Numbered from the stretch's first letter, positions 15,649-53,476 are shown. The stretch: DNA of 64,000 bases from an uncultured beta proteobacterium (GCA_963695915.1 CAVOIO010000034.1:15654-79653), one strand, 5' to 3'. The notes: generated by a model from the sequence alone, not told the origin. Program-made: numbers and translations.

Positions 15649-16446
15649 GTGAACACGAACCCGGCGGACCGGCGTATCGGCGAGGTGATCCTGAAGATGG
15701 AGAACATCTCGCTCGCCTTCGGCGGCGTCAAGGCGCTCAGCGAGGTGAGTTTCGACGTGCGCGAACACGAGATCCGCGCCATTATCGGGCCCAACGGCGC
15801 CGGCAAGAGTTCGCTGCTCAACGTCATCAACGGGGTCTACCACCCTAACGAGGGCACCGTGACCTACAAGGGCAATACCCGCCGGCAGATGCGCCCCTAC
15901 GAGGCGGCGAGCCAGGGAATCGCACGCACCTTTCAGAACATCGCGCTGTTCAAGGGGATGACGGTGCTGGACAACATCATGACCGGGCGAACTCTGAAGA
16001 TGCATGCCGGCTTCCTGTCTCAGTGCCTGTATTTCGGCAGCGCGCAGCGTGAGGAATTGGAGCACCGCGAGAAAGTTGAGCAGATCATCGATTTTCTGCA
16101 GATCGAGTCGATTCGCAAGACGCCGGTGGGGCGACTGCCCTACGGCCTGCAGAAACGGGTCGAACTCGGCCGCGCGCTGGCAGCGGAACCGGAGCTGCTG
16201 CTGCTCGACGAGCCGATGGCCGGCATGAATGTGGAGGAAAAGCAGGACATGAGCCGCTTCATCCTCGACGTCAACGACGAATTCGGCACCACCATTGTTC
16301 TCATCGAGCACGACATGGGCGTGGTGATGGATCTGTCGGACCGCGTGGTGGTGCTCGACTACGGCCGCAAGATCGGCGACGGTTCGCCGGACGAGGTCCG
16401 CGCCAAGCAGGCCGTGATCGACGCCTATCTGGGCGTAGCCCATTGA
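15649..16446 (+). CDS. branched-chain-amino-acid-type ABC transporter ATP-binding protein (LivG-like)
   Basis: Walker A GPNGAGKSS, signature and Walker B LLLLDEPMAGM. GTG lies 2 nt after the upstream stop. The alternative start is ATG 15694. Confidence 0.9.
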   Translation: MNTNPADRRIGEVILKMENISLAFGGVKALSEVSFDVREHEIRAIIGPNGAGKSSLLNVINGVYHPNEGTVTYKGNTRRQMRPYEAASQGIARTFQNIALFKGMTVLDNIMTGRTLKMHAGFLSQCLYFGSAQREELEHREKVEQIIDFLQIESIRKTPVGRLPYGLQKRVELGRALAAEPELLLLDEPMAGMNVEEKQDMSRFILDVNDEFGTTIVLIEHDMGVVMDLSDRVVVLDYGRKIGDGSPDEVRAKQAVIDAYLGVAH

Positions 16447-16453
16447 TGAACTC

Positions 16454-16584
16454 GGTGAGGGGTGAGGTGGGAGGAGTGAGGGGAAATGCTTTTACCCATT
16501 TCGCTGCGACCTCGGCCAAATTTGTCGCTGACGCAATCAATATCGTGAGGATTTTCCTCACCCCTCACTCCTCACCCCTTACGC
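16454..16584. repeat. tandem-heptamer inverted-repeat element (GTGAGGG type)
   Basis: Left arm 16454-16483 ggtgaggggtgaggtgggaggagtgagggg begins 7 nt after the upstream stop. Right arm 16556-16584 cctcacccctcactcctcaccccttacgc ends 1-7 nt before the next start. The spacer is 72 nt and AT-richer. Confidence 0.8.
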
Positions 16585-16585
16585 A

Positions 16586-17503
16586 TTGACTATGTCTTTC
16601 TTCTTCGAAGTCCTTATCGGCGGGCTGATGGCGGGAGTTCTCTACTCGCTGGTGGCCTTGGGATTTGTGCTCATCTTCAAGGCGTCCGGCGTGTTCAATT
16701 TCGCCCAGGGCGCCATGGTGCTTTTCGCCGCTCTGACGCTGGTGCGGTTGATGGAAATTCTGAAAGGAACGTTTTCTCCATTCCTGCTGGCACTTGCGAT
16801 AACCATTGTCGTCATGATCGGACTTGCGCTGGTGATCGAGCGACTGGTGCTGCGGCCGCTGGTGAACCAGGCTGGCATCAGCCTGTTCATGGCGACAATC
16901 GGTATTTCCTATGTATTGGACGGTTTCGGGCAGGCGGTGTGGGGCAGCGACATTTACAAGCTCGATATCGGCATGCCCAAACGTTCGCTGACGTTGTTCG
17001 AGTCCGTATTCGAGGGCGGCGTATTGGTGCCCGGCGGGGACCTGGTCGCGACGCTGATCGCCGGTCTGCTGGTGGCGGGTCTGGCGATTTTTTTCCAGAA
17101 GACTCGCATTGGCCGGGCGCTGCGTGCGGTGGCAGACGACCACCAGGCCGCCCAGTCGGTCGGCATTCCGCTGAACTATATCTGGGTGATCGTGTGGACG
17201 GTGGCTGGGCTGGTCGCGCTGGTGGCCGGCATGGTGTGGGGTTCCAAGCTCGGCGTGCAGTTTTCGCTTGCGCTGGTCGCCCTGAAGGCGCTGCCGGTCC
17301 TTATTCTTGGCGGGTTCCAATCGATTCTTGGAGCCATTGTGGGCGGGCTCATCATCGGCGCCGGAGAAAAGCTTTCCGAGGTCTACCTGGGACCGCTGGT
17401 CGGCGGTGGTATCGAAAACTGGTTTGCCTACGTGCTGGCGTTGCTGTTCCTTCTCGTCCGGCCCGAGGGTCTGTTTGGCGAGAAGCACATTGATCGTGTT
17501 TGA
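16586..17503 (+). CDS. ABC transporter permease (LivH-like)
   Basis: 305 aa and polytopic. LYSLVALGFVLIFKASGVFNFAQGAMV is the typical LivH N-terminus. Start is TTG 16586 or ATG 16592. No SD. Confidence 0.9.
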   Translation: MTMSFFFEVLIGGLMAGVLYSLVALGFVLIFKASGVFNFAQGAMVLFAALTLVRLMEILKGTFSPFLLALAITIVVMIGLALVIERLVLRPLVNQAGISLFMATIGISYVLDGFGQAVWGSDIYKLDIGMPKRSLTLFESVFEGGVLVPGGDLVATLIAGLLVAGLAIFFQKTRIGRALRAVADDHQAAQSVGIPLNYIWVIVWTVAGLVALVAGMVWGSKLGVQFSLALVALKALPVLILGGFQSILGAIVGGLIIGAGEKLSEVYLGPLVGGGIENWFAYVLALLFLLVRPEGLFGEKHIDRV

Positions 17504-17508
17504 GAAAT

Positions 17509-17654
17509 GCGTGAGGGGTGAGGGGTGAGGGGTGAGGGGTAATTCGGTAGCCGATTTTCTTGCGGCGGGGTGGTCCGGACTTTGGAGCACCGGGCCGCTT
17601 TGTTTTTCCGTTTTGACTCCTCACCCCTCACCCCTCACCCCTCACACCTCACGC
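17509..17654. repeat. tandem-heptamer inverted-repeat element ((GTGAGGG)x4)
   Basis: Left arm 17509-17539 gcgtgaggggtgaggggtgaggggtgagggg begins 5 nt after the stop. Right arm 17619-17654 cctcacccctcacccctcacccctcacacctcacgc is its near-perfect reverse complement. The 79-nt spacer contains ggtccgg..ccgggcc followed by gctttgttttt. Confidence 0.85.
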
Positions 17655-17670
17655 CTTTAGGGTCTGACAA

Positions 17671-18735
17671 GTGTTTTACAGAGAAGCGGGACAATTCAAG
17701 TCTTCCTACGCGGCCGACCAAGCGGTGTTCCCGATCCTTCAGGATCGAGTATTCATCGCAATCTGGCTTGCGGTCGGTTTCATTCTGGTGCCGCTGCTCT
17801 CGAGCGAGTATCTGTTCCGCGCGATATTCATTCCGTTCCTGATCATGGCGCTTGCGGCACTCGGGCTGAACCTTCTGGTCGGCTACTGCGGGCAGCTTTC
17901 GCTCGGCACCGGCGGGTTTATGGCTGTGGGCGCCTACGCCGCCTACAACCTGTGCGTGCGCATCCCGGGCCTGAATCCGCTGGTGGCGTTTCTGCTCGCC
18001 GGCGGCGTAGCGACGCTGGTCGGCATCGTGTTCGGCATTCCCAGTCTGCGCATCAGGGGCTACTACCTGGCCGTGGCCACCCTGGCTGCGCAATTCTTCC
18101 TGGACTGGGTGTTCAGCCGGGTCGCATGGTTCACCAACAACTCACCATCGGGTTCCATCACCGCGCCGCCGTTAACGCTATTCAGCCTTACCTTCGAAAC
18201 CCCGGTCAGGAAGTACCTGCTGTGCCTTGCGATTCTGGTGTTGTTCGCGGTGGTAGCGAAGAATATCGTGCGCGGCCGCATCGGGCGCGTCTGGATGGCG
18301 ACGCGCGACATGGACGTAGCCGCGGAAATCATCGGCATCCGCCCCATGTATGCGAAACTTTCCGCATTCGCGGTGAGTTCATTCTTCATCGGCGTTGCGG
18401 GTGCGCTCTGGGCGTTCGTTCACCTGGGGTCATGGGAACCGCTCGCCTTCGACATCAATCGGTCATTCAGTATCCTTTTCATGGTCATCATCGGCGGGCT
18501 GGGTTCGATCCTGGGCAGTTTGCTCGGCGCGGCCTTCATTACCCTGTTGCCGCTATTGCTCAACCAGCTACCCCAATGGTTCGGCATCGCGATTTCAACG
18601 GCGATGATCTCGCACCTGGAATCGATGATCTTCGGGGCTCTGATCGTTTTTTTTCTAATCGTGGAACCGCTGGGATTGGCGCGGCTGTGGCGCATCGGCA
18701 AAGAAAAATTGCGCTTGTGGCCGTTCCCGTATTAA
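17671..18735 (+). CDS. ABC transporter permease (LivM-like)
   Basis: 354 aa and polytopic. LNLLVGYCGQLSLGTGGFMAVGAY is the LivM signature region. GTG start. Confidence 0.9.
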   Translation: MFYREAGQFKSSYAADQAVFPILQDRVFIAIWLAVGFILVPLLSSEYLFRAIFIPFLIMALAALGLNLLVGYCGQLSLGTGGFMAVGAYAAYNLCVRIPGLNPLVAFLLAGGVATLVGIVFGIPSLRIRGYYLAVATLAAQFFLDWVFSRVAWFTNNSPSGSITAPPLTLFSLTFETPVRKYLLCLAILVLFAVVAKNIVRGRIGRVWMATRDMDVAAEIIGIRPMYAKLSAFAVSSFFIGVAGALWAFVHLGSWEPLAFDINRSFSILFMVIIGGLGSILGSLLGAAFITLLPLLLNQLPQWFGIAISTAMISHLESMIFGALIVFFLIVEPLGLARLWRIGKEKLRLWPFPY

Positions 18736-18793
18736 CTTGACGAGGAAGCAAACCACAGCCGGCCGCGGCACCATCTAATAAGGAGGCAACATC

Positions 18794-20125
18794 ATGGAGA
18801 AGTTCTTAAGTCTCAAGGCCCTGGTGCTGGGAGTCACCGCGGCGGGCGCACTCTCGGCAGCAGCGCAGACGTTCGCGCAGGCCAATGAACAGTTCGTTCC
18901 GGCACTCGTTTATCGAAGCGGCCCTTATGCGCCCAACGGCGTCCCCTTTGCAAACGGCTATGCGGACTATCTGACCCTGGTGAACGAACGCGACGGCGGC
19001 ATAAACGGTGTGAAGATCGTTTTCGAGGAATGCGAAACCGGCTACTCGACCGACCGCGGCGTAGAGTGCTACGAGCGCCTGAAGGGTAAGGGGCCCACCG
19101 GTGCGGCCGTGTTCAGCCCGCTCTCCACGGGGATCACCTACGCACTGACGGAAAAGGCGCCAGTGGACAAGATCCCGCTGATTACCATGGGCTACGGCCG
19201 CTCCGAATCCGTTGATGGGAGCGTGTTCGCATGGAACTTCCCGTTGCTGGGCACCTATTGGACTGCCGCCGACGTGATCATCCAGTACATCGGCCAAATG
19301 AACGGCGGCCTCGACAAGCTCAAGGGCAAGAAAATCGCACTGGTGTATCACGACTCGCCCTACGGCAAGGAGCCGATCCCGCTGCTCAACGAGCGCGCCA
19401 AGCGCCACGGCTTCGAACTGCTCACGATCCCGGTCACGCACCCGGGTGTGGAGCAAAAGGCGGCGTGGTTGCAGATCCGCCAGAACCGTCCCGATTACGT
19501 GCTGCTGTGGGGTTGGGGTGTGATGAACTCCACCGCGATCAAGGAAGCGGTGGCGGTGAACTATCCGCGCGACCACATGATCGGCGTATGGTGGGCCGGC
19601 GCCGAGCCCGACGTTCTGCCCGCTGGCGAAGACGCGAAGGGCTACAACTCCATCGCCCTGCAGCACTCGGCAGGCCAGATAGCGGTGCACGCGGACATCC
19701 TCAGGAATGTGTACGACAAGGGCAAAGGCGCAGGCAAGCGGGAGGAGGTGGGGCACGTGCTCTACAACCGCGGCATGCTCAACGCCATGCTGGTGGTCGA
19801 GTCGATCCGCGCTGCCCAGGGAAAATACGGCAAGAAACCGATGACTGGCGAACAGGTGCGCTGGGGCATAGAGAACCTCAACCTCGACCAGAACCGTATC
19901 AAGCAACTCGGTTTTGCCGGCATGCTGCAGCCATTAAAGGTGTCGTGCAATGATCACGAGGGCGTGCGCCATGCGCGTATCCACCAGTGGGACGGCGCCA
20001 AGTGGAAGTTCGTGTCGGACTGGATCGAAGGCGACAACACGCTGCTGCGGCCGATGGTGGACGAGGCGGCCAGGAAATACGCCAAGGAAAAGAACATCAC
20101 CCCGCGCGACTGTACAAAGGCGTGA
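18794..20125 (+). CDS. ABC transporter substrate-binding protein (type I PBP, LivK-like), secreted
   Basis: Strong SD aaggagg. Signal peptide MEKFLSLKALVLGVTAAGALSAAAQTFA. 443 aa, intact. Confidence 0.9.
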   Translation: MEKFLSLKALVLGVTAAGALSAAAQTFAQANEQFVPALVYRSGPYAPNGVPFANGYADYLTLVNERDGGINGVKIVFEECETGYSTDRGVECYERLKGKGPTGAAVFSPLSTGITYALTEKAPVDKIPLITMGYGRSESVDGSVFAWNFPLLGTYWTAADVIIQYIGQMNGGLDKLKGKKIALVYHDSPYGKEPIPLLNERAKRHGFELLTIPVTHPGVEQKAAWLQIRQNRPDYVLLWGWGVMNSTAIKEAVAVNYPRDHMIGVWWAGAEPDVLPAGEDAKGYNSIALQHSAGQIAVHADILRNVYDKGKGAGKREEVGHVLYNRGMLNAMLVVESIRAAQGKYGKKPMTGEQVRWGIENLNLDQNRIKQLGFAGMLQPLKVSCNDHEGVRHARIHQWDGAKWKFVSDWIEGDNTLLRPMVDEAARKYAKEKNITPRDCTKA

Positions 20126-20131
20126 ACGAAA

Positions 20132-20234
20132 GTGAGGGGGAAGGGGTGAATAAGCGAAGCGCTCCCCCTCCTCTGTGGCCCGGGGGAGAGGGCGCAGTGT
20201 GAGGGATCACGCATTCACCCTTCACGCATTCACC
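20132..20234. repeat. tandem-heptamer inverted-repeat element (GTGAGGG/GTGAATG type) with nested REP-like palindrome
   Basis: Left arm 20132-20151 gtgagggggaaggggtgaat. Right arm 20213-20234 attcacccttcacgcattcacc. The spacer carries ctccccctcctctgtggcccgggggagaggg (20162-20192). Confidence 0.7.
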
Positions 20235-20254
20235 TGCCGATTGCCAACCTGAAC

Positions 20255-21078
20255 ATGTCAGTACAAGCTCCAGCCGCCCTCCTGACCGTAAATAATATCG
20301 AGGTAATCTACGACCACGTGATCCTGGTGTTGAAGGGCGTCTCGCTCAAGGTGCCGGACGGCACGATCGTGGCCCTGCTCGGCGCCAATGGTGCGGGCAA
20401 GTCCACCACGCTCAAGGCGATCTCCAATCTGTTGCGCGCCGAGCGCGGCGAGGTCACCAAGGGCTCGGTCGGAATTCGACGGCGAGCGAATCGATCAGCT
20501 CAATCCCTCCGACGTGGTCAAGCGCGGAGTCGTGCAGGTGATGGAAGGCCGCCATTGCTTCGCCCATCTCACCGTGGAGGAGAACCTTCTCACCGGCGCG
20601 TTCACCCGCAACGTGGGTCGCACCGAGATCGCCGCAGACCTTGACAAGGTCTACGACCTATTTCCCGCGTCTGAAGCAGCGCCGCAGCAGCCAGGCCGGC
20701 TACACCTCGGGCGGTGAACAGCAGATGACGGCGGTAGGCCGCGCGCTGATGGCACGACCGAGGCATGATTCTTCTCGATGAACCCTCGATGGGACTCGGC
20801 GCCACAGATCGTCGAGGAAATCTTCGAAATCGTGCGCGGGCTGAACGAGAAGGAGAAACGTGAGCTTCCTGCTGGCCGAACAGAACACCAATGTCGCGTT
20901 GCGTCACGCCGATTACGGCTACATCCTTGAGAACGGCCGCGTCGTGATGGACGGCCCGGCGGCCGATCTCGCAAATAACGAAGACGTAAAGGAGTTCTAC
21001 CTCGGGCTTTCGACCTCCGGGCGCAAGAGCTTCCGCGATTCGAAGCATTACCGCCGCCGCAAGCGCTGGCTGGCTTGA
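20255..21078 (+). pseudogene. ABC transporter ATP-binding protein (LivF-like), frame broken about 5 times
   Basis: Walker [29 protein letters not shown] and [16 protein letters not shown] appear only after frame changes near 20468, 20660, 20763, 20795 and 20858. C-terminal part is VSFLLAEQNTNVAL... Confidence 0.85.
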
Positions 21079-21082
21079 CGGC

Positions 21083-21180
21083 GGTGAGGGGTGAGGAGCG
21101 AGGGACGAGGGTAAGAGTAAAGGCGCATACAGCCTACGTCTGTCTATTTCCTCGACCCTCGCCCCTCGTCCCTCGCCCCC
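21083..21180. repeat. tandem-heptamer inverted-repeat element (G[TC]GAGGG type)
   Basis: Left arm 21083-21111 ggtgaggggtgaggagcgagggacgaggg begins 4 nt after the stop. Right arm 21150-21180 cctcgaccctcgcccctcgtccctcgccccc ends 5 nt before ATG 21186. Confidence 0.8.
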
Positions 21181-21185
21181 GAATC

Positions 21186-22492
21186 ATGGACTACTACGAC
21201 GACCTCGAAACCCGGGAGCCGGAAGTACGGGAAAGCGCGCTGTTTGCAGCGTTGCCCGGACAGATCGCGCACGCCAGGGCAAATGCTCCTTACTTCGCGC
21301 GCCTGCTGAAGGATGTCGAACCGAACTCGATACGCGACCGCAAGGCGCTGGCGAAGCTGCCGGTCACGCGCAAGTCCGACCTGATTGCACTGCAGAAGGA
21401 CGCGCCGCCGTTCGCCGGAATGACGGCGGTTGCGACCGGCGCTCTGGGCCGGGTGTTCTCTTCACCGGGTCCGATTTACGACCCGCAGGGCGCCAGGGGT
21501 GATTTCTGGCGCATGGGCCGGGCGCTGTTCGCGGCGGGGTTCCGGCGCGGCGACCTGGTGCACAACACGTTCTCCTATCATTTCACGCCGGCGGGAATGA
21601 TGATGGATCTGGGCGCGCAGGCGATCGGCTGCGCGGTGTTCCCGGCCGGCATCGGGCAGACCGAACTGCAGGTCGCGGCGATTGCGGACCTTAAACCGGA
21701 TGGCTACGCCGGAACGCCTTCGTTCCTGAAGATCCTTCTCGAGAAAGCCGACGAACTGAAGGCCGACGCCTCGAGCCTGAAGAAAGCACTGGTGTCGGGC
21801 GAGGCCTTGCTGCCGCCGGTGCGCGACGTGGCTCAAGGCGCGCGGCATCGACGTGCGCCAATGCTACGGCACCGCGGACCTGGGGCTGATCGCCTACGAA
21901 ACCGAACCGATGGGCGGACTGATCGCGGACGAAGGCGTCATCGTCGAGATCCTGCGCCCCGGCACCGGCGATCCAGTCGCCGAAGGTGAAGTCGGGGAAG
22001 TGGTGGTGACGACGTTATGCACCGAGTATCCGCTGATCCGCTTCGCCACCGGCGATCTGTCCGCCGTGGCCGTCGGCATCAGCCCCTGCGGCCGCACCAA
22101 TACGCGCATCAGGGGATGGATGGGACGTGCCGACCAGACGACGAAAGTGAAAGGCATGTTCGTGCATCCTTCGCAGGTTGCGCAGGTGGTGAAACGCCAC
22201 CCGGAGATCCTGAGGGCGCGGTTGGTTGTGGACCATGATGCCGAAAAGAACGATCGCATGACGCTTGCGCTGCGAAGTCCGCAACCGGAACGATCTGCTG
22301 GCGCAGGCCATTACCAATACGCTGCGCGAGGTGTGCAAGCTGCGCGGACAGGTCGAGTTCGCCGACGCCGGCTCGCTGCCCAACGACGGCAAGGTTATCG
22401 AGGATTTACGCAAGTACGACTTAGTAACCCTCAGCGCAAAGGCGCGAAGGCGTAAGGATCGAAAGAAGGCGAAACGATCGAAGAACGTCTAG
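21186..22492 (+). pseudogene. phenylacetate-CoA ligase-like adenylate-forming enzyme (PaaK / F390-synthetase family), frame broken 2 times
   Basis: MDYYDDLETREPEVRESALF...LPVTRKSDL...FSSPGPIYDP..; YGTADLG..; KVKGMFVHPSQV. Frame changes near 21830 and 22265. The last 16 codons (..AKARRRKDRKKAKRSKNV) are encoded by the next repeat arm. Confidence 0.8.
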
Positions 22493-22552
22493 GATCAGGC
22501 GCTCTGTTCGCGACTGTCTTCACTCCTCACCCTTCGCTCCTCAGCGCTTCAC
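22444..22552. repeat. tandem-heptamer inverted-repeat element (GCGAAGG type)
   Basis: Left arm 22444-22487 gcgaaggcgtaaggatcgaaagaaggcgaaacgatcgaagaacg overlaps the 3' end of the upstream ORF. Right arm 22518-22552 cttcactcctcacccttcgctcctcagcgcttcac. Pairing is imperfect and can occur in several registers. Confidence 0.6.
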
Positions 22553-22575
22553 TTGGATTTGAAGCGAACGCCTAA

Positions 22576-23164
22576 ATGTCCACTCACTCGATCAGCAAGT
22601 ACCCCGTCCCGAAGCTCGAAGACCTGCCGCAGGACATCCGCGCCAAGATGCTGGAAGTGCAGCAGAAGGCCGGGTTCATTCCCAACGTGTTCCTGACGCT
22701 CGCGCACCGGCCGGACGAATTCCGCGCCTTTTTCGCCTACCACGACGCGCTCATGCTCAAGGACTCCGGGCTCAGCAAAGCCGAGAAGGAAATGATCGTG
22801 GTCGCCACCAGCGGGTTGAACCGGTGCCCCTATTGCGTGATCGCCCACGGCGCCATCCTGCGCATCTACGCGAAGAATCCGCAGATCGCCGACCAGGTCG
22901 GCGATCCATCACCGCAAGGCCGACATCACGCCGCGCCAGAAGGCAATGCTGGATTTCGCTTGCAAGCTCGCCCGCACTCCCGAGGCCCTGGCCGAAGCTG
23001 ATCACGAGGCGCTGCGCAATTACGGCTTCAGCGCCGAGGATATTTGGGACATCGGCGCCATCACCGCGTTGTTCGCGCTTTCAAACCGCATGGCGCATCT
23101 GATCGACATGCGCGCCAACGACGAGTTCTACCTGCTCGGGCGCGTTCCGCCACCCGGCCGGTAA
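22576..23164 (+). pseudogene. peroxidase-related / AhpD-like carboxymuconolactone-decarboxylase-family protein, one frame change
   Basis: ...EKEMIVVATSGLNRCPYCVIAHG... (CxxC-type AhpD core). One extra base near 22900 (ADQV|AIHHRKADITPRQKAMLDFACKL). Confidence 0.8.
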
Positions 23165-23210
23165 TCAGCCGAACCTCCTGTACGGCAAAGGTTTTGCGCT
23201 GGCCCGCCGG

Positions 23211-23219
23211 TGATATAAT
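23211..23219 (+). promoter_or_regulatory. extended -10 promoter element TGaTATAAT upstream of aceE
   Basis: ccggTGATATAATttt lies 78 nt upstream of ATG 23297. Only a weak -35 (ttttgc) is present at 16-nt spacing. Confidence 0.4.
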
Positions 23220-23296
23220 TTTTGCCAAAATCGGGCGCGGCGTCACGAACACCGCAGTCCCGAATTACGACCGCAACCTCACCAAAGGCAGAAATC

Positions 23297-25978
23297 ATGG
23301 CAGCGCTTCCGGATGACGATCCGCAGGAGACGAACGAGTGGCTGGATGCGCTCGACGGCCTGCTTCAGCACGAGGGCCCGGAGCGCGCGCACTATATTCT
23401 GGAGAAGCTGATCGAGAAGGCGCGCCGCTCGGGCGTGTACCTGCCATACAGCGCCAATACCGCCTACATCAATACCATTCCGCCCGGCAAGGAGGAGCGC
23501 TCCCCGGGAGACCACGAGCTGGAACACCGGATCCGCTCGTACGTGCGCTGGAACGCCGCCGCGATGGTGTTGCGCGCCAACAAGAAGTCCTCCGAACTGG
23601 GCGGCCACATCGCCAGCTTCGCCTCGGCCGCCACGCTCTACGACGTCGGCTTCAATCACTTCTGGCACGCGCCTTCGGAGAACCACGGCGGCGACATGCT
23701 GTTCTTCCAGGGACATTCCTCCACGGGGGTCTATGCGCGCGCCTTCATGCTCGGGCGGCTGACCCGGGAGCAGATGGACAACTTCCGCCAGGAAGTGGAG
23801 GGCAAGGGCCTGTCTTCCTATCCGCATCCGTGGCTGATGCCGGACTTCTGGCAGTTCCCGACGGTGTCGATGGGGCTGGGTCCGATCATGGCAATCTACC
23901 AGGCGCGCTTCATGAAGTACCTGCAGGACCGCGGCCTGGCCAACACCGAGGGCCGCAAGGTCTGGTGCTTCCTCGGCGACGGCGAGATGGACGAGCCCGA
24001 GTCGATGGGCGCGATCGGCGTGGCGTCGCGCGAAAAGCTCGACAACTTGATTTTCGTGGTGAACTGCAACCTGCAGCGCCTGGACGGCCCGGTGCGCGGC
24101 AACGGCAAGATCATCCAGGAACTCGAGTCGGATTTCCGCGGCGCCGGCTGGAACGTGATCAAGGTGATCTGGGGCTCCTACTGGGATCCGCTGCTGGCCA
24201 GGGACAGGAACGGCCTGCTGGTCAAGCGCATGGAAGAGTGCGTGGACGGCGAGTACCAGACGTTCAAGTCCAAGGATGGCGCCTACGTGCGCAAGCACTT
24301 CTTCGGCAAGTACCCGGAGTTGCTGGAGATGGTGGCCAACATGTCCGACGACGACATCTGGCGGCTGAATCGCGGCGGCCATGATCCGCACAAGATTTAC
24401 GCCGCGTATTCCGCGGCGGTGAAGCACCAGGGCCAGCCGACGGTGATCCTGGCCAAGACCATCAAGGGCTACGGGATGGGCGAGGCCGGCGAGGCGCAGA
24501 ACATCACTCACCAGCAGAAGAAGATGGGAACGACCTCGCTGAAGGCGTTCCGCGACCGCTTCAACCTGCCGGTCCCGGACGACAAACTGGAGGAAGTTCC
24601 CTACCTCACTTTCGAGGAAGGTTCACCCGAACTCGACTACATGCGCAAGCATCGCGAGGCGCTGGGCGGCTATCTGCCGTCGCGCCGCCCCAAGGGCGAC
24701 GCACTGGAAATACCGGCGTTGTCCGCCTTCGAACCGCTGCTGAAGAGTTCGGAGGAGCGCGAGGTTTCCACCACGATGGCGTTCGTGCGCATCCTCAACA
24801 TCCTGGTGAAGGACAAGAATATCGGCAAGCGCGTGGTGCCGATCGTGCCCGACGAATCCCGCACTTTCGGCATGGAAGGCATGTTCCGGCAACTGGGCAT
24901 CTGGTCTTCCGTCGGCCAGCTCTATACGCCGCAGGACGCCGACCAGTTGATGTTCTACAAGGAGGACAAGCACGGCCAGATCCTGCAGGAAGGCATCAAC
25001 GAGCCCGGGGCGATGTCCTCCTGGATCGCCGCGGCGACGTCGTATTCGACGCACGGCGTGTCGATGATCCCGTTCTACATCTACTACTCGATGTTCGGCT
25101 TCCAGCGCGTCGGCGACCTGGCCTGGGCGGCAGGCGACCAGCGCGCGCGCGGCTTTCTTCTGGGCGGGACTTCCGGCCGCACCACGCTGAACGGCGAGGG
25201 CCTGCAGCACGAGGACGGCCACAGCCACGTCCTGGCTTCGACCATCCCGAACTGCATTTCCTACGACCCGACCTTCTCCTACGAAGTGGCGGTGATCATC
25301 CAGGACGGCCTGCGCCGCATGGTCAGGGAGCAGCAGGACGTCTTTTTCTACATCACGCTGTTGAACGAGAACTACAGCCATCCGGCGATGCCGAAAGGCG
25401 CGGAAGACGGCATTCTCAAGGGGATGTACAGGCTGCGCGAGGGGAGAGGGGAGAGGGGAGAGGGGAGAGGGAAAAAGGACACCCCGAGAGTCCAATTGCT
25501 GGGCAGCGGCGCGATTCTGCGTGAAGTCATCGCCGCGCAGGACCTGCTGGAAAAGGACTTCGGCGTGTCCGCCGACGTGTGGAGCGCGACCAGCTTCAAC
25601 GAACTGCGCCGCGAGGGTCTCGAGGTACAGCGCTGGAACCTGCTGAATCCCGAGCAAAGTCCGCGCGAAACCTACGTGAGCCGGTGCCTGAATCACGCGC
25701 CCGGTCCGGTGGTTGCAGCGACCGATTACATGAAGATTTTCGCCGATCAGATCCGGCCGTTCATCTACAAGCCTTACGTGGTGCTCGGCACCGACGGTTT
25801 CGGCCGCTCCGACTACCGGCGGCAGTTGCGCAAGTTCTTCGAAGTGGATCGCTACTACGTCACCGTGGCCGCGCTCAAAGCGCTTGCCGATGAGGGCAGC
25901 GTGCCGGCCGCGACGGTGGCCAAGGCGATCAAGAAGTACGCGATCGATCCGGGCAAGCCGAATCCGGTTACGGTCTGA
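23297..25978 (+). CDS. aceE: pyruvate dehydrogenase E1 component (homodimeric type)
   Basis: Intact, 893 aa from MAALPDDDPQETNEWLDALDGLL. GGHIASFASAATLYDVGFNHFW and GDGEMDEPES are present. Co-linear with E. coli AceE as I recall it. Confidence 0.95.
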   Translation: MAALPDDDPQETNEWLDALDGLLQHEGPERAHYILEKLIEKARRSGVYLPYSANTAYINTIPPGKEERSPGDHELEHRIRSYVRWNAAAMVLRANKKSSELGGHIASFASAATLYDVGFNHFWHAPSENHGGDMLFFQGHSSTGVYARAFMLGRLTREQMDNFRQEVEGKGLSSYPHPWLMPDFWQFPTVSMGLGPIMAIYQARFMKYLQDRGLANTEGRKVWCFLGDGEMDEPESMGAIGVASREKLDNLIFVVNCNLQRLDGPVRGNGKIIQELESDFRGAGWNVIKVIWGSYWDPLLARDRNGLLVKRMEECVDGEYQTFKSKDGAYVRKHFFGKYPELLEMVANMSDDDIWRLNRGGHDPHKIYAAYSAAVKHQGQPTVILAKTIKGYGMGEAGEAQNITHQQKKMGTTSLKAFRDRFNLPVPDDKLEEVPYLTFEEGSPELDYMRKHREALGGYLPSRRPKGDALEIPALSAFEPLLKSSEEREVSTTMAFVRILNILVKDKNIGKRVVPIVPDESRTFGMEGMFRQLGIWSSVGQLYTPQDADQLMFYKEDKHGQILQEGINEPGAMSSWIAAATSYSTHGVSMIPFYIYYSMFGFQRVGDLAWAAGDQRARGFLLGGTSGRTTLNGEGLQHEDGHSHVLASTIPNCISYDPTFSYEVAVIIQDGLRRMVREQQDVFFYITLLNENYSHPAMPKGAEDGILKGMYRLREGRGERGEGRGKKDTPRVQLLGSGAILREVIAAQDLLEKDFGVSADVWSATSFNELRREGLEVQRWNLLNPEQSPRETYVSRCLNHAPGPVVAATDYMKIFADQIRPFIYKPYVVLGTDGFGRSDYRRQLRKFFEVDRYYVTVAALKALADEGSVPAATVAKAIKKYAIDPGKPNPVTV
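25441..25471. repeat. (GGGGAGA)x4 heptamer array in frame inside aceE
   Basis: ggggagaggggagaggggagaggggagaggg encodes ..LREGRGERGEGRGKKD.., in the loop that in E. coli AceE reads ..KLETIEGSKGKVQLLGSG. Confidence 0.85.
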
Positions 25979-25981
25979 ACC

Positions 25982-26154
25982 GAGTGAATGAGTGAAGGGT
26001 GAACGAGTGAAGGGTGAAAGACTCAGAACATGACCAAATCGGGGATTCCCTGTTGACCCGGCGGCGCGGACGAACGCTTTACCCGTTCACCTTTCACGCC
26101 TTCACACATTCACGCATTCACCATTCACTCATTCACCCTCATCACTGATTCACC
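25982..26154. repeat. tandem-heptamer inverted-repeat element (GTGAAGG/GTGAATG type) filling the aceE-aceF gap
   Basis: Left arm 25982-26020 gagtgaatgagtgaagggtgaacgagtgaagggtgaaag begins 3 nt after the aceE stop. Right arm 26077-26154 (ctttacccgttcacctttcacgccttcacacattcacgcattcaccattcactcattcaccc...) ends 9 nt before the aceF ATG. Confidence 0.85.
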
Positions 26155-26163
26155 GCATAAAAC

Positions 26164-27493
26164 ATGGGAAGCTTACGCGACGTCCTCGTCCCCGACATCG
26201 GCGATTTCAAGAACATCCCGGTGATCGAAGTCCTGGTCAAGCCGGGTGATACCGTCAAGGCGGAAGACTCGCTGATCACGCTCGAATCCGACAAGGCGAC
26301 GATGGAAGTCCCGGCGCCTTTCGCCGGCGTGGTCAAGGAAATGAAGATCAAGCCCGGCGACAAGGTATCGGAAGGCATGCCGATCCTTAGCCTGGAAATC
26401 AGCGAAGGTGCACGGCTTCCGCAGCCGCGGCCCCGCAGAAACCCGCCCCGGCACCGGCGCCGGCGACAGCCGTCCAGGCAGCCGCTCCGGCGGCCAAACC
26501 GGCGCCCGCACCTGCTCCCGCTCCCGCACCGTCCCCCAGCTTGCTGCCGTCGGGCCGATCGACGAGGCCGGCTTTTCCAAGGCGCACGCCAGCCCTTCGG
26601 TGCGCCGTTTCGCGCGCGAGCTGGGCGTCGATCTCGCCCGCGTCAAAGGCAGCGGCCCGAAGGAACGCATTCTCAAGGAAGACATCGCCAGCTTCGTAAA
26701 GAACGCGCTGGCGCAACCGGCCGGCGCGTCCGGTGGGGGCGCCGGTCTGGCGATTGGGACTCCCAGCCTGGCCGCAGGTGGACTTCGCGAAGTTCGGCCC
26801 GGTCGAAGACCAGCCGATGTCGCGCATCAAGAGGATTTCCGGCCCGGCCCTGCATCGCAACTGGGTGCATATCCCGCACGTTACCCAGAACGACGAAGCA
26901 GACATCACCGAACTCGAAGCCTTCCGCAAGAGCATGGCAGACGAAGCGCAGAAACAGGGCGTCAAGCTGACGCCGCTTGCGCTGATCATGAAAGCCGTGG
27001 TGGCCGCGCTCAAGGTCCACCCGGAGTTCAATTCCTCGATCGCGCCCTCGGGCGATGCGCTGATCCTGAAACGCTACTACCACATCGGGGTTGCCGTGGA
27101 CACGCCGGGCGGTCTGGTGGTGCCGGTGGTCCGCGACGTTGATCAGAAGGGCGTGCTGCAACTGGCGAAGGAACTGGGCGAGATGAGCGCCAAGGCGCGC
27201 GACGGCAAGCTCGGACCCGGCGGACATGCAGGGCGGCACTTTCTCGATATCCAGCCTCGGCGGAATCGGCGGCACGCATTTCACGCCGATCATCAATGCG
27301 CCCGGAAGTCGCTATTCTCGGCGTATCGAAATCGACGACCAAACCGGTGTGGAAGGACGGCCAGTTCGTGCCGCGGCTGATGTTGCCGTTGTCGCTGTCC
27401 TACGATCACCGTGCGGTCGACGGCGCGCAGGGAGCAAGGTTCATTACCTACCTCAATAGCGTGTTGTCAGACATCCGCCGGGTGCTCCTCTGA
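26164..27493 (+). pseudogene. aceF: dihydrolipoamide acetyltransferase E2 of pyruvate dehydrogenase, frame broken about 5 times
   Basis: One lipoyl domain (LESDKATMEVPAP), an Ala/Pro linker, E3-binding domain (ASPSVRRFARELGVDL) and the catalytic domain ([13 protein letters not shown]). Frame changes near 26405, 26535, 26755, 27220 and 27300. Confidence 0.9.
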
Positions 27494-40110: not shown

Positions 40111-40130
40111 CGAATCGTCAGACGATATCA

Positions 40131-40244
40131 GGGATGAAGGCGGAAGGAAGGGCAAGAGACTGCTAAGAAAGGACTCTACGGCCTTCAATGCCGTCCGCTG
40201 TTATCTCACTTCATCCCTCATCCCTCATCCCTCGTCCCTGCTTC
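40131..40244. repeat. tandem-heptamer inverted-repeat element (GATGAGG/GGAAGGA type) between convergent genes
   Basis: Left arm 40131-40158 gggatgaaggcggaaggaagggcaagag. Right arm 40207-40244 cacttcatccctcatccctcatccctcgtccctgcttc also supplies the last codons (..QGRGMRDEG*) of the minus-strand gene. Confidence 0.75.
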
Positions 40245-41390
40245 TCGCGCCGCATCGCGCCGGCAACGATCTTGAATTCGTACAGCCGGCACTCCAGCGG
40301 GCCGTTGTAAAGCGGGGTGCGCTTAGATGGTGACAGTCCGATCAGCTTGGGCAGGCGCAGATCGGCGGTGAACAGGTAGGCGCGCCAGCCGGCAAACTTC
40401 TTTTTGAGCACGTCCCCCAGCTGCGGATAGAACGCAGCCAGTTCTCCTGCTCACCCAGGCGCACGCCGTAAGGCGGATTGGTCACCAGCACGCCTTCGGC
40501 GGCCGGCGCCGAAATTTCCAGCACGTTGGCCTGTTTGAGGCTGACCGCATCGGCCAATCCTGCGGCAGCCAGGTTCTCGCGCGCAAGCTTGAGCGCGTCT
40601 CCGAACAGATCGCTGCCGAAAATCGGCGTCCGGGCGTCATTCCTGATCCGCGCTTCGGCATTGCCCCTGGTGCGGACCCACTCCGCAGCATCGAAGTTGC
40701 GCAGCTTCTCGAACGCGAACCTGCGATTGACGCCCTGCCGGAATGCCCCGCGCGATCTGCGCTGCTTCGATCAGCACCGTGCCGCTGCCGCACATCGGAT
40801 CGAGCAGCGGGGTACCCGGCGTCCAGCCGGCAAGCGTCAGAATTCCGGCGGCGAGGTTTTCGCGCAAGCGGCGCTTCGCCCGCCATCTGCCGTGAACCGC
40901 GCTTGAACAGCGGCTCACCCGAGGTGTCGAGATAAATCGTGAACCGCTCGACGTCGAGAAAGGCGTGGATGCGCACATCGGGCTGCGCCGTATCCACGCT
41001 TGGGCGGCTTCCTGTTTGCCCACGGAACTTGTCGCAGGCCGCATCCTTGATCCGCAGCGTGATGAATTCCAGGCTCTTGAGCGGGCTCGCGACCGCCGCG
41101 ACATTCACCCGGATCGTGAGGCCGGGATCGAACAGACGCTGCCAGTCCAGAGCGTACACGCCGCGATAGACATCGTCCTCGTTGCGGTAGCGGCCCGAGC
41201 CGATCTCCCACAGCACCCGGCTGGCGATGCGGCTGTGCAGGTTGGCGGAATAGGCGAGCGGCAGCGTCCCGCCAAAGCCCACGCCACCTTCCACCGTGCC
41301 GATGTCCGATGCGCCCAACTCGCCGAGTTCGGCGGCCAGCAATGCCTCGAGCCCTCGCGGACAGGGCGCAAAAAACCGTTCTTGCTTCAA
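40211..41390 (-). pseudogene. THUMP-domain class I SAM-dependent RNA methyltransferase (UPF0020 / RlmL-N-like), frame broken about 3 times
   Basis: TTG start, MKQERFFAPCPRGLEALLAAEL. ..[15 protein letters not shown] (SAM motif I) and VTNPPYGVRLG (NPPY motif). Frame changes near 40870, 40730 and 40445. Confidence 0.8.
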
Positions 41391-41413: not shown

Positions 41414-41573
41414 CAACGCAAAGACGCAAAGAACGCAAAGGAAACCCGGATAATGGGAACGAATGGTTCATGGCACCGATACTCTGATAGCCGTGCTTGC
41501 GGCGAACCGGGTCTGCAGAGCGATATTTGCGTCCATTCATCAGCATTTCTTTGCGTTCTTTGCGTCTTGCGTG
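41414..41573. repeat. tandem-octamer inverted-repeat element (ACGCAAAG type)
   Basis: Left arm 41414-41444 caacgcaaagacgcaaagaacgcaaaggaaa. Right arm 41546-41573 tttctttgcgttctttgcgtcttgcgtg. The spacer is 101 nt. Confidence 0.85.
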
Positions 41574-41588
41574 GGAGATGGTAGAGTT

Positions 41589-41930
41589 CTAGAGGCCCAG
41601 GAAAACTTCGAACTCGATGCGCTTCCAGGGATCGCGATGCTTGGTCAGGCGCACGATGCGCGCTTGCAGCCGGTTGCCGCGGTCGAGCTGGCGGGCCACC
41701 GCTTCATTTTCCTTGCGCGGCACATAGCCGAGCTTGTGGCCGTTCCATTCCACGCGCACCGCCCGCGCATCATGCGCGTTGTCGGGCTCCCGGATCAGGG
41801 CGAGCACATCGCCGACTTTCATCTGCTCCCAGAGTTCCTTGCCTTGGTAGTACTGAAAGCCGGCCAGCGGGGAATTCTGCACCAGGATGCGCGCGGTGAC
41901 CTGCGCCGCATGCAGCGTACTGCGCACCAT
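41589..41930 (-). CDS. stand-alone HIRAN-domain protein
   Basis: ..LAGFQYYQGKELWEQMKVGDVLALIREPDNAHDARAVRVEWNGHKLGYVPRKENEAVARQLDRG.. matches the HIRAN pattern. Start taken at MVRSTL. Confidence 0.7.
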   Translation of the reverse strand: MVRSTLHAAQVTARILVQNSPLAGFQYYQGKELWEQMKVGDVLALIREPDNAHDARAVRVEWNGHKLGYVPRKENEAVARQLDRGNRLQARIVRLTKHRDPWKRIEFEVFLGL

Positions 41931-45746: not shown

Positions 45747-45788
45747 CGCCCTTGTATCCGTATCCCGGTGAAACCGAGAGCGCTGTTG

Positions 45789-45819
45789 CCTTCGCCCCTC
45801 GCTCCTCGCCCCTCTTTCC
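45789..45819. repeat. single pyrimidine-rich heptamer arm (CCTCGC[CT] type) between nodI and nodJ
   Basis: ccttcgcccctcgctcctcgcccctctttcc. No convincing partner arm. Confidence 0.4.
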
Positions 45820-45828
45820 TGTTCACGA

Positions 45829-46740
45829 TCAGTCCCGCAGGTCGCGCCCGGTGAGTTTCAGGAAGACGTCCTCCAGATTCGCAGGCCGGTGAAGGTAGCG
45901 TAAACCCGGACGATTCTGCAGCGTGGCAATCAACGGTTCGGCGCGGTTGGTATAGCAGAATATGGTCTCGCCGGTATGCTCGGCTCGCATGGCAAGTTTT
46001 TCGCCGTGCTCAGCCGCCCATCCCGCAACGTCTTCCCCGTACACCTCCAGCACCTCCGGCTCGATGTGACGCGAGATCAGTTCGCGCGGGCTGCCGGTGG
46101 AAATGATGCGGCCATGGTCCATGATCGACAAGCGCCGGCAAAGGCGTTCCGCCTCGTCCATGAAATGCGTGGTCAGCAGGATGGTCTTGCCCCGGTTCAG
46201 CAACTGCTTGAGCCGCTCCCAGATCAGGTGGCGGGCCTGGGGATCGAGTCCGGTGGTCGGCTCATCCAGGAATATCAGGTCGGGGTCGTTGATCAACGCC
46301 CGCGCCAGCGACAAGCGCCGCTTCATCCCGCCGGAGAGGGTCTGGATCTTCGAGTTCGCGCGGTTGGTCAGGCCGGCGAACTCCAGAAGTTCGGGAATGC
46401 GGCTTCGCGTGACGGCGTCAGCCTGGCCGAAATAACGCCCGTACACAAGCAGGTTTTCGAACACGGTGAAGTCCGGGTCGAGGTTGTCGAGCTGCGGCAG
46501 TACGCCCAAGCGGATGCGGGCCTCGCGCGCAGCCTTCGGTACCGGAAGACCGAGCAGCGAGATCTCTCCCGCATCCGGATCGGAAAGGCCCAGGCACAGT
46601 CGCAGCGTGGTGGTCTTGCCGGCACCGTTGGGTCCAAGCAGTCCGTGGCACTCGCCGGCCTCCAGCGAGAGGTTCACGCCGCGCACGACTTCGAGGTCGC
46701 CGTAGGATTTGCGCAGGTCTTTGACTTCAAGAAGCGGCAT
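45829..46740 (-). CDS. nodI: ABC exporter ATP-binding protein (NodI-like)
   Basis: 303 aa, intact. [36 protein letters not shown]. Confidence 0.85.
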
Positions 46741-46769: not shown

Positions 46770-46905
46770 GACGCAGAGGGCGCAGAGGAAACAAGAAAGG
46801 ACACAAAGAAATGTTGGGATACGAACAATTTCAAGTTTTCAATAGCGTCCTTTCTTTTTTCTTTGCGCTCTCTCTGTGGTTCCCTCTGGCGGGACGTCTC
46901 TGCGT
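46770..46905. repeat. tandem-repeat inverted-repeat element (GCGCAGAGG / AAGAAAGG type)
   Basis: Left arm 46770-46811 gacgcagagggcgcagaggaaacaagaaaggacacaaagaaa. Right arm 46848-46905 tcctttcttttttctttgcgctctctctgtggttccctctggcgggacgtctctgcgt. The spacer is 36 nt. Confidence 0.75.
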
Positions 46906-46949: not shown

Positions 46950-47564
46950 TCAGGCGCGACAGTGTCTTTCGACAAGTTTCTGCAGCGTCACCAGATTCCC
47001 ATGGAAAAAATGGCCGGCGCCGGGAAACACCACGATCGGAAGCTGTTGCGGACGGGCCCAGTCGAGTGCGTCCTTGAGTGGCACCACGTCGTCTTCCTCG
47101 CCGTGCACCACCAACGTTCCCGCGGGAACCGTGCCGACCGGGAAGCGACCGACCGCGGGCGCCACCAGCACCAGATGCCTCGGCCCGAGTCGCTCGTGCG
47201 ACAGAGGCGGCGACGAAGCCGCCGAAGGAGAATCCGCCCAGCGCCAACTCGCCCTCGCCGTAGGTGCGCCGCGCGTGCTCCGCGAGCGCCAGGAAATCCT
47301 CGATTTCGCCGCGGCCCTCGTCGAACGACGCCGTCACTGGCGCCGACGCCGCGGAAATTCAGTCGCAGCGCGCAGTACCCCGAGCGCGAAGAACGCCTTC
47401 GCCAGGGTCTGCACTACTTTGTTGTCGAGCGTGCCGCCGTAAAGCGGATGCGGATGCGCTACCAGCGCCACGCCGCGGCGCGCCTCGCCGGGATCGTTGG
47501 CGACGATCTCGAGTTTGCCCGCGGGCCCGTCAATCGAGAGCCGGCTCTGTGATGCAGATTTCAA
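46950..47564 (-). pseudogene. alpha/beta-fold hydrolase (about 205 aa), frame broken 2 times
   Basis: ..VALVAHPHPLYGGTLDNKVV.., nucleophile elbow GFSFGG and ..VVHGEEDDVVP..GAGHFFHG. Frame changes near 47335 and 47170. Confidence 0.7.
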
Positions 47565-53277: not shown

Positions 53278-53302
53278 TTCTCGCTATGAGAACGGAAACC
53301 GG

Positions 53303-53450
53303 AACCGCCAAGACGCCAAGGCCGAAGAAGACCGAATTGATAATTGGTCATCGCGGATATTCCCTGAGAAGTTCGACCGTGAGATCCATCTCCATTGCCG
53401 TTCGCTCGCGTTTCCTCTGAATTCCTTGCGGCCTTGGCGTCTTGGCGGTT
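53303..53450. repeat. tandem-octamer inverted-repeat element (CGCCAAGA type) filling the potA-potB gap
   Basis: aaccgccaagacgccaaggccg (53303-53324) is a perfect 22-nt reverse complement of 53429-53450 (cggccttggcgtcttggcggtt). The spacer is 94 nt. Confidence 0.9.
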
Positions 53451-53476
53451 CAACTGATCTCCAAGCCGTCAGTCGT

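Follow-up and report, generated by a model that had tools for sequence, protein, structure and literature searches.

We analysed a 64 kb stretch of DNA (62% G+C; CAVOIO010000034.1:15654-79653, hereafter the window) from an uncultured beta proteobacterium, focusing on long hairpin-forming elements that lie between the cistrons of its operons and on the translation starts behind them. As judged from Pfam matches, an acyl-CoA ligase, a liv-type ABC transporter, a paaK-like ligase and a CMD-like protein are encoded in a row, followed by aceE-aceF, and an element occupies nearly every inter-cistron spacer of this region (six of the seven junctions examined from livG to aceF). For comparison, the substrate-binding protein (sbp) was used as query against species-representative genomes, which yielded 80 syntenic loci (L001–L080), the nearest of them from uncultured Burkholderiales/Alcaligenaceae metagenome-assembled genomes (83–94% amino-acid identity) and the farthest from Hyphomicrobiaceae and other Alphaproteobacteria. 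Orthologous loci are not independent, so that the P values given here are optimistic, and the analysis rests on sequence, all consequences at the mRNA level being inferred.

Architecture of the hairpin elements

The window contains 10 hairpin elements (E1–E10), six of which fall within 16446–26166, and one solo arm. In each element, a 5′ arm of purine/G-rich units of 7–9 nucleotides (nt), arranged in tandem in 3–5 copies, is followed by a spacer of 40–110 nt and a complementary pyrimidine 3′ arm. Tandem Repeats Finder detected arrays with a period of 7–9 and 3–7.6 copies in every arm, and a GTGAGGGGTGAGG-like pattern occurs 25 times compared with 1.7 expected occurrences. The unit sequence itself varies by element, as seen for GTGAGGG, GTGAAGG/GAGTGAA, CGAGGGA, ACGCAAAGA, GCAGAGG, GCCAAGAC and CGCAGAGGA. 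Nine of the 10 elements are flanked by co-oriented genes and one by convergent genes, and the divergent gaps of the window carry none. RNA folding of the nine elements between co-oriented genes resulted in free energies (ΔG) of −37.9 to −97.6 kcal/mol with z-scores of −2.9 to −9.4.

On the plus strand, E1 (16454–16582) fills the livG/livH spacer with a purine arm at 16454–16483 (GGTGAGG ×4.3), a unique spacer and a pyrimidine arm at 16556–16582 (CCTCACC ×3.4; ΔG −59.6 kcal/mol, z −5.6), and the livH-like permease (16592–17503) starts 9 nt beyond it with an ATG lacking a Shine–Dalgarno (SD) sequence. In the livH/livM spacer, E2 (17509–17658) pairs (GTGAGGG)×4.3 at 17511–17540 with (CCTCACC)×5.4 at 17619–17656 (ΔG −97.6 kcal/mol, z −9.4) and is followed by the livM-like permease (17671–18735), which opens with an SD-less GTG. 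The adjoining sbp gene (18794–20125) is the sole internal cistron with a strong SD (AAGGAGG) and has no element before it in the window. E3 (20132–20233), between sbp and livF, has outer arms of GTGAAKG / TCACGCAT units at 20132–20152 and 20207–20233 (ΔG −49.7 kcal/mol, z −3.2), encloses a nested CCCCTC...GGGGAG palindrome at 20159–20195 and is homologous to the elements of L001 and L006. The arms of E4 (21083–21179; livF/paaK-like spacer) comprise GGTGAGG/CGAGGGA ×3–4 and CCTCGCC ×4.3 (ΔG −57.3 kcal/mol, z −6.8), those of E5 (22434–22551; paaK-like/CMD-like spacer) are imperfect, with GCGMAAGG-type units facing CTTCACTCCTCACCCTTCGC (ΔG −46.9 kcal/mol, z −2.9), and those of E6 (25982–26153; aceE/aceF spacer) consist of (GAGTGAA/GGGTGAA)×5 and (TTCACNCA)×7.6. 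E6 shares 81% identity with the L017 element over 171 nt and precedes aceF (26164–27380), which is frameshifted in the window and starts with an ATG without SD.

Three elements are placed on the minus strand: E8 (41415–41573; HIRAN/THUMP-methyltransferase spacer), with arms of ACGCAAAGA 8–9-mers (ΔG −57.8 kcal/mol, z −5.5), E9 (46773–46887; between a frameshifted hydrolase and an ABC ATPase), with GCAGAGG/AAAGAA-type units (ΔG −37.9 kcal/mol, z −4.1), and E10 (53302–53451; potA-like/potB-like spacer), whose 23-nt arms of GCCAAGAC units are perfectly complementary (ΔG −70.4 kcal/mol, z −5.9). E7 (40129–40248), located between convergent genes and assigned to neither strand, forms a weak stem (z −1.35) and has a minus-strand arm of (GGGATGA)×4.1. 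The solo arm, (GAGGGGC)×3.3 at 45783–45827 on the minus strand, lies 14 nt past the stop of an ABC ATPase and has no complementary partner. As many units hold TGA or TAG and recur with a period of 7, a run of three units provides each of the three frames with a stop, making the purine arm an all-frame stop pad; the pyrimidine arm contains no stops. The open reading frame (ORF) of an RlmL-like gene stops on a TGA (40211–40213) inside the (GGGATGA)n array of E7 (40211–40239).

Position of the elements relative to stops and starts

An earlier note on this DNA had described purine arms beginning shortly after the upstream stops in the operons on the plus strand. Both its stops (16446, 17503, 20125, 21078 and 25978) and its arm starts (16454, 17509/17511, 20132, 21083 and 25982) were borne out, placing the arms 7, 5, 6, 4 and 3 nt past the stop, respectively. 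The starts behind the six operon elements (16592, 17671, 20255, 21186, 22576 and 26164) proved correct as well, 16592 (ATG) rather than 16586 being the one conserved in orthologs. The pyrimidine arms, said to end 1–24 nt before these starts, end at 16582, 17658, 20233, 21179, 22551 and 26153, corresponding to 9, 12, 21, 6, 24 and 10 nt and hence to a measured gap of 6–24 nt. No upstream stop had been given for the start at 22576, where the paaK-like ORF continues through to the purine arm if the 1-nt insertion at 22420 is real and not an error.

The minus-strand junctions had been described as behaving the same, which is true insofar as none of their three starts has an SD, but the spacing is looser, the stems beginning 15, 25 and >60 nt after the stop and ending 24–32 nt before the start. 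At the HIRAN/methyltransferase junction, the stem begins ~15 nt past the stop at 41589 and finishes 24 nt before the TTG at 41390, whereas at potA/potB it begins 25 nt past the stop at 53477 and finishes 24 nt before the ATG at 53277, a start that needs a 1-nt frame correction. The real stop of the frameshifted hydrolase upstream of nodI, at 46950, is more than 60 nt from the stem, which finishes 32 nt before the ATG at 46740. Across 59 junction elements of the window and its relatives, the median distance was 6 nt from stop to stem and 13 nt from stem to start, with the stop being the nearer of the two in 42 cases versus 14. This placement is the sole direction-dependent signal that we found, and its simplest reading is that an initiation region of ~10–20 nt must be kept downstream.

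SD status of the starts behind the elements

In line with the earlier note, none of the six starts behind E1–E6 carries GGAG, GAGG or AGGA at positions −17 to −4, and their duplexes with the anti-SD sequence ACCUCCUUA range from +0.7 to −3.6 kcal/mol. The four starts cited previously as element-free controls do possess an SD (18794, −12.2; 13676, −9.3; 5730, −6.9; 56413, −7.3 kcal/mol), but they represent a favourable selection, as SDs are rare across the window: an SD motif was present at only 6 of 20 element-free window starts, with a positional background of 8%. These 20 starts were curated by hand, are not experimentally validated, and replaced a composition-based gene map with longest-ORF start calls that was too noisy for a genome-wide SD rate. 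Because SD use is low throughout the window, the absence at all six starts is not significant on its own (P ~0.12); for the nine starts behind elements on both strands, the corresponding value is P ~0.04.

We compared the close clade junction by junction, anchoring the starts on conserved N-termini and tabulating SD status with and without an element. At livH/livM, an SD was present in 2 of 10 loci with an element and in none of nine without; the corresponding fractions were 1/11 and 0/2 at livF/paaK, 0/3 and 0/2 at paaK/cmd, 1/13 and 1/4 at sbp/livF, 4/9 and 3/5 at livG/livH, and 0/3 and 3/3 at aceE/aceF. At livM/sbp, the AGGAGG was kept either way (3/3 with and 9/9 without an element). The idea that a missing SD behind an element signals SD-independent initiation is not sustained by these data, since orthologous junctions free of elements also lack an SD in four of the six element-bearing junction families, the outcome that the earlier note itself had named as refuting it. 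More distant relatives had an SD at 63 of 96 starts with elements and at 68 of 102 without, and the alphaproteobacterial elements are placed between the stop and a retained GGAG. Over the 80 syntenic loci, SD status tracks the junction and the lineage, not the element, and only at aceE/aceF, where clade is a confounder, do the two states differ.

Ancestral junctions and insertion

The lengths of the junctions showed a bimodal distribution, from about −1 to 70 nt and mostly <45 nt without an element, and ~80–230 nt with one. In four junction families the element-free gaps measured −1 to 43 nt, with ~40 nt at aceE/aceF and 55–70 nt at sbp/livF, and it is because the gaps at those four families were ≤43 nt that the elements seem to fill them exactly. 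The long gaps of the relatives exhibit the same architecture with other units, namely GTGAGGC, GTGACGA, CACAGAGAA and GGGGATT, and in the Alphaproteobacteria GGGAGTA, GCGAATA and GGCAGTA.

The livH/livM junction shows what was there before. In L009, where this junction is element-free, the sequence reads ...GAT AGG GTC TGA caa GTG, and the junction TAGGGTCTGAcaaGTG is identical to the right flank in the window. Correspondingly, TAGGGTCTGACAAGTG lies directly 3′ of the pyrimidine arm in the window, L001 and L017, and the livM GTG of the window stands behind TAGGGTCTGACAA, the ancestral junction sequence that is identical in L009. A second Arg-Val-stop ending (CGT GTT TGA) precedes the purine arm. 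At livG/livH, the right flank CGCATTGACTatg is similar to the GCACTGAC-atg junction of element-free relatives. The old stop codon of the upstream gene is retained in the right flank at livH/livM and appears to be so at livG/livH. Since the L009 junction equals the right flank of the window, the SD-less initiation region at livH/livM is older than the element, and at least at this junction the element was inserted into a tight, coupled arrangement. At most junctions, starts behind elements lack an SD because none was there before the insertion. Sequence comparison establishes that the elements were inserted into short operon spacers, where they evolve in situ, and that the downstream genes are SD-less irrespective of them.

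Turnover, inversion and nesting

At a given junction, the elements of different genomes show homology over their whole length, with 80–86% identity, whereas different junctions share only the low-complexity arms. An all-against-all BLAST of 208 spacers confined spacer homology to orthologous junctions, and a metagenome scan with the E2 spacer core returned one true ortholog, from the corresponding junction of L085, along with 12 chance similarities in coding DNA. Compared with the flanking genes, the entire E2 element (arms and spacer) is inverted in L017 (8728–8865) and in L085 (~660–860), matching at 86% over 140 nt in reverse orientation, and has the same orientation as the window in L006. 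This looks like an in-place flip via recombination between the inverted arms.

The inversion also bears on a terminator-like stem with T-run that had been pointed out in the 17540–17618 spacer. An inner stem and T-run are indeed present within E2 at ~17562–17618, but as the spacer is inverted in L017 and L085, they are not conserved as a sense-strand terminator. The outer hairpins were likewise considered as intrinsic terminators and rejected: mixed sequence follows their stems, a T-run follows only the inner stem of E2, and a terminator scan gave none at any element end.

Comparison of L001/L002 with L009 shows one unit position at which G-C is replaced by A-U in the full set of three units of each arm, a concerted compensatory change that either selection for pairing or slippage together with inter-arm conversion could produce. 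The livH/livM junction has received at least four unrelated element types, that is, repeated independent gains. In L001 (1353–1487), the element at this junction is nested, its outer GTGAGGC/CCTCACC arms holding a second palindrome of GGTGATTA/TAATCACT 8-mers in the place of the spacer. At sbp/livF of L002 (11333–11360), a solo purine arm runs directly into the livF ATG, giving an SD-like GGGAAGGGG. This arm and the solo arm of the window (45783–45827) suggest deletion of the spacer and pyrimidine arm.

Other, unrelated REP-like (repetitive extragenic palindromic) sequences occur at the same junctions, including L007:514–662, L018:7558–7798, L056 and L067 at livG/livH as well as L074, L027, L060 and L067, and belong to the types CCCCTC...GGGGAG(A)GGG, also nested in E3 of the window, and GTCATTCCCGCG...CGCGGGAATGAC. 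Palindromic inserts of more than one kind are thus drawn to these junctions. Coding DNA, too, is evidently subject to heptamer slippage, to judge from an in-frame (GAGGGGA)×4.7 array at 25439–25471 of aceE (23222–25978), which is also a canonical G-quadruplex (G4) motif: it contains 21 extra nt (3 units, 7 amino acids) compared with L002 and L017, turning ...FSEGKGKKD... into ...LREGRGERGEGRGKKD....

Polarity and strand-specific signatures

Among the 36 paired arrays identified in 1.17 Mb (the window and L001–L080), 34 were G-first and none C-first, with two neutral, and the same order was observed on either strand; the period was 7 in 23, 8 in 7 and 9 in 4 of them. For this strict polarity we favour, as a guess, avoidance of Rho, whereby the C-rich arm would never emerge before its partner.

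Further tests did not favour an SD-independent initiation device either. A G:U signature specific to the sense strand was not found: the sense fold was the more stable one in 19 cases and the antisense fold in 31, and G:U pairs amounted to 175/2238 in sense compared with 217/2335 in antisense folds. Arm length showed no asymmetry with respect to the direction of transcription (15 versus 14). The start regions were not unusually open, with a mean unpaired probability of 0.35–0.57, equal to that of SD-led control starts. No Rfam 15 family reached its gathering score anywhere in the window on either strand.

These data qualify two proposals of the earlier note. Its suggestion that the hairpins act on the polycistronic mRNA agrees with their location inside co-directional, evidently operonic spacers, so that any read-through transcript carries a hairpin of −38 to −98 kcal/mol; yet no sense-strand signature accompanies this, and the argument for a device serving SD-less starts fails. 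As a free C/U-rich leader, the pyrimidine arm is a poor candidate because it is paired and resembles the anti-SD.

Relation to known repeat classes

An excess of heptamer simple sequence repeats (SSRs) was reportedly noted by Mrazek et al. in 2007, and the work of Rehm et al. is said to build on it. In the latter study (Rehm et al. 2015, PLoS One, PMC4692102), pairs of G-rich heptamer SSRs with the units GGGAATC in Xanthomonas and GGGGAYT in Nostoc were described as 'always convergent' and as forming G4 and i-motif structures in vitro, their function being unknown. Our elements resemble this class in their tandem units of ~7 nt, typically in ~4 copies, in the two convergent arrays that form an inverted repeat, in their location between co-oriented and rarely between divergent ORFs, and in their recurrence at the same junctions of related genomes with variation in length and sequence. 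Defining features of the class that we recovered are at least two tandem units of ~7 nt with a G-rich strand, convergent arrays and an intergenic position, mainly between co-oriented ORFs, for which the class has its arrays within 50 bp of the stop and of the next ORF and our elements show medians of 6 and 13 nt. The consensus GGGAATC or GGGGA(C/T)T is absent from the window, a GGGGATT-type array being present at livF/paaK of L017, and G4 potential (at least four G3 tracts) is limited to E2, E4, E7 and the array within aceE and missing from the other seven elements. In view of the absent consensus and of G4 motifs in only 3 of 10 elements, we file them as members of the same kind, not of its sequence family. 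They further differ in their host, an uncultured Burkholderiales lineage, in units that vary per element and include 8- and 9-mers, in arms mostly without G4 and in their very high density; inversion, nesting and concerted compensatory change, documented here, go beyond the published description.

Like REP/BIME and REPIN sequences of Enterobacteria and Pseudomonas, the elements are extragenic palindromes in operons or after stops that form stable stem-loops and vary in presence among strains. REPs are transcribed and stabilise upstream mRNA, and those within ~15 nt of a stop affect translation termination. A REP is a palindrome of 20–40 bp belonging to one conserved family in each genome, and it frequently has a GTAG/CGTC head and is accompanied by a cognate RAYT transposase; in contrast, the arms described here are tandem arrays, the copies lack a conserved sequence and a unique spacer of 40–110 nt is enclosed. 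Identity with REP, BIME or REPIN was rejected, as there is no conserved palindrome family, units differ and spacers are unique. No RAYT (IS200/IS605-like Y1) transposase was seen among the proteins scanned in the 64 kb window, in a non-exhaustive scan that was not a systematic transposase search.

Interpretation and alternative explanations

We consider it probable that the elements constitute a REP-like class of intergenic repeats, built from convergent short-unit arrays, which arise and turn over in place and are tolerated at intercistronic junctions. They add a new case to a known repeat class and do not represent a novel translation signal. In this Burkholderiales lineage, inserts of 100–190 nt would repeatedly colonise intercistronic junctions, the right remnant of which would be the old initiation region, and would then turn over in place by repeat slippage, exchange between arms and occasional inversion. 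Most downstream cistrons would have been SD-less before the insertion and would have stayed so. Because the arms pair almost perfectly, the insert would be looped out of the mRNA, leaving stop and start ~10–36 unpaired nt apart at the base of the stem, a path short enough that the old coupling or re-initiation could continue, rendering the insertions tolerable. As the stem begins within ~6 nt of the stop, it may act like a stop-proximal REP, forming a barrier to 3′ exonucleases and slowing upstream termination, and, with G first and C last on both strands, the C-rich arm would stay hidden as a loading site for Rho.

Several observations weigh against this interpretation. At aceE/aceF, an SD occurs only where the element is absent, three element-free relatives having GAGGAG and a TTG start and three element-bearing genomes having no SD and an ATG, a contrast that is confounded by clade (92–95% versus 78% identity) and by start codon. 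For the pooled close clade, an SD is found at 11 of 52 starts behind elements compared with 16 of 34 without (Fisher P = 0.017), a deficit that vanishes upon stratification by junction. Window and L017 share 82% identity in the E2 spacer, compared with 62–73% at third codon positions of the flanking genes, which hints at constraint or recent exchange. Finally, the repeated gains at livH/livM together with the strict polarity are hard to explain by neutrality alone.

An adaptive role of the elements as REP-like post-transcriptional devices, blocking 3′-to-5′ exonucleases, slowing termination or triggering rescue less than ~15 nt from the stop, masking C-rich RNA from Rho and tuning cistron stoichiometry, is rather unlikely, though several observations would suit it. 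Their stems of −38 to −98 kcal/mol begin at a median distance of 6 nt from stops, their neighbours are co-oriented or convergent genes whereas the divergent gaps of the window are free of them, pairing is kept despite complete turnover of the unit sequence, and the universal G-first order matches, for either strand, the expectation from Rho avoidance. In E. coli, REPs are known to control translation termination (Liang, Rudd and Deutscher 2015, as cited in PMC6815119). However, exchange between arms can keep the pairing without selection, no strand-specific signature is apparent, and presence varies among relatives of 90–95% identity (L009, L002), so that no single copy is essential.

The model of the earlier note, read here as one in which the elements are selected mRNA devices for SD-less cistrons, operating by ribosome hand-over at the stem base (shunt-like or by 70S re-initiation) or by an S1-binding C/U-rich leader, we regard as improbable. 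It draws on the close fit of the stems between stops and starts and the unpaired path of ~10–36 nt in the window, on the absence of SDs at the nine starts compared with ~30% elsewhere in the window, on the aceE/aceF contrast and on the GAGG/GGAG found directly after the stop in many purine arms. Against it, the same cistrons are SD-less in element-free relatives, with an identical livH/livM initiation region in L009; elements coexist with strong SDs at livM/sbp and in alphaproteobacterial relatives; the sense strand has no excess of G:U pairs or stability; start regions are not unusually accessible and the pyrimidine arm is paired and anti-SD-like; and one element (E7) lies between convergent genes, while others exist as solo arms. 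In phage T4 genes 38 and 25, a stable hairpin likewise shortens the distance between translation signals, but there it positions a real SD next to the AUG, whereas no SD is present at the stem base here, and the resemblance is a hypothesis only. Coupled initiation by termination-reinitiation or 70S scanning in tightly coupled operons offers an equally hypothetical parallel, the downstream cistrons here lacking an SD of their own and deriving from junctions with gaps of 0–40 nt.

More speculatively, and with a low chance of being correct, a replication or repair process or a dedicated enzyme might build G-first/C-last palindromes at the 3′ ends of ORFs, with selection keeping a ribosome bridge at the stem base (stop 3–7 nt before the stem, SD-less start 5–25 nt after it) along with the shielding from Rho, which would amount to a coupling and anti-polarity system in operons of soil Proteobacteria. 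The 34:0 polarity, the repeated gains at the same junction and the loss of the aceF SD with the element are compatible with such a system without demonstrating it.

That the elements serve at the DNA level, as non-B structures (G-quadruplexes or cruciforms) for supercoiling, replication, recombination or local stability with gene adjacency being secondary, is very unlikely. Polarity, arm length and fold energy are symmetric between strands, the in-place inversion indicates that recombination between arms occurs, and units from Xanthomonas and Nostoc fold into G4 and i-motif structures in vitro (Rehm et al., PMC4692102). G4 as a common denominator was nevertheless rejected, with a canonical four-tract motif in only 3 of 10 elements (E2, E4, E7); the units ACGCAAAGA, GCCAAGAC and GAGTGAA are incapable of forming it, the alphaproteobacterial units GCGAATA and GGCAGTA are not G-tract repeats, and a role at the DNA level alone would not account for the position of the stems nearer to stops than to starts.

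Mobilisation in trans as miniature transposable elements with inverted repeats (MITEs) or REPIN-like elements with a preference for stop codons is almost certainly not the explanation: the elements resemble MITEs (Correia, ERIC, RUP and Nezha, for example) in being 100–200 bp long with inverted repeats at their ends, in lying between genes, often within a shared transcript, and in being able to form a long RNA hairpin, and repeated independent gains at one junction would fit, but a MITE is flanked by target-site duplications and has a conserved core that recurs at many loci, whereas here the spacers are all unique with only low-complexity arms in common (the E2 core being found elsewhere only at the orthologous junction in the metagenome scan), units vary within one genome, there was no sign of a transposing master copy, and flanking direct repeats were no longer than chance (mean longest match 4.29 nt versus 4.19 ± 0.15 nt in permuted pairs; 42 elements), the short matches that include the stop codon, CATTGA (E1), GTYTGA (E2) and TGAAC (E3), being better read as ancestral gene-end remnants.

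Taking the elements as repeats tolerated at junctions separates the positional pattern from the causal one: the missing SD at most junctions was inherited from formerly tight, coupled junctions and not made by the repeats. The analysis also widens the range of convergent heptamer-repeat palindromes, a poorly known class described from Xanthomonas and Nostoc, to include uncultured Burkholderiales and Hyphomicrobiaceae, and adds to the description by Rehm et al. a polarity that is strict across lineages and many units, concerted change in all units of both arms and in-place inversion. Hairpins of −60 to −100 kcal/mol beside SD-less starts, whether tolerated or exploited, bear on translational coupling, Rho polarity and mRNA decay and are experimentally tractable.

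Frame breaks and further features of the neighbouring genes

Several genes of the window carry single-base indels compared with intact orthologs: livF at 20470, 20656, 20764, 20798 and 20855, the paaK-like gene at 21827, 22265 and 22420, and aceF within 26412–27300. Frame breaks were also noted in the hydrolase (46950–47564), at the potB-like start near 53265 and in the RlmL-like gene near 40480. The indels are mostly insertions outside homopolymers and split the affected genes into 2–5 frames; their distribution is uneven, with none in the genes from acyl-CoA ligase to binding protein or in aceE within the same region. They may represent either local assembly errors or real pseudogenes, and the boundaries of affected ORFs were set by homology, not by the raw reading frame.

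A TATAAT-like hexamer, GGTGATATAATTT, is located just 5′ of the long aceE ORF (23207–23297). Alignments to distant orthologs begin only at residue 26, which makes the ATG at 23297 the probable true start of aceE, and aceE may have its own promoter apart from the liv-paaK operon. Identity at third codon positions to the same relatives was 0.65–0.69 for livH and livM and 0.82–0.86 for the binding-protein gene, the latter compared with L001 and L002. This mosaic identity across 16592–20125 (compared with L001, L002 and L017) suggests recombination among lineages inside the operon.

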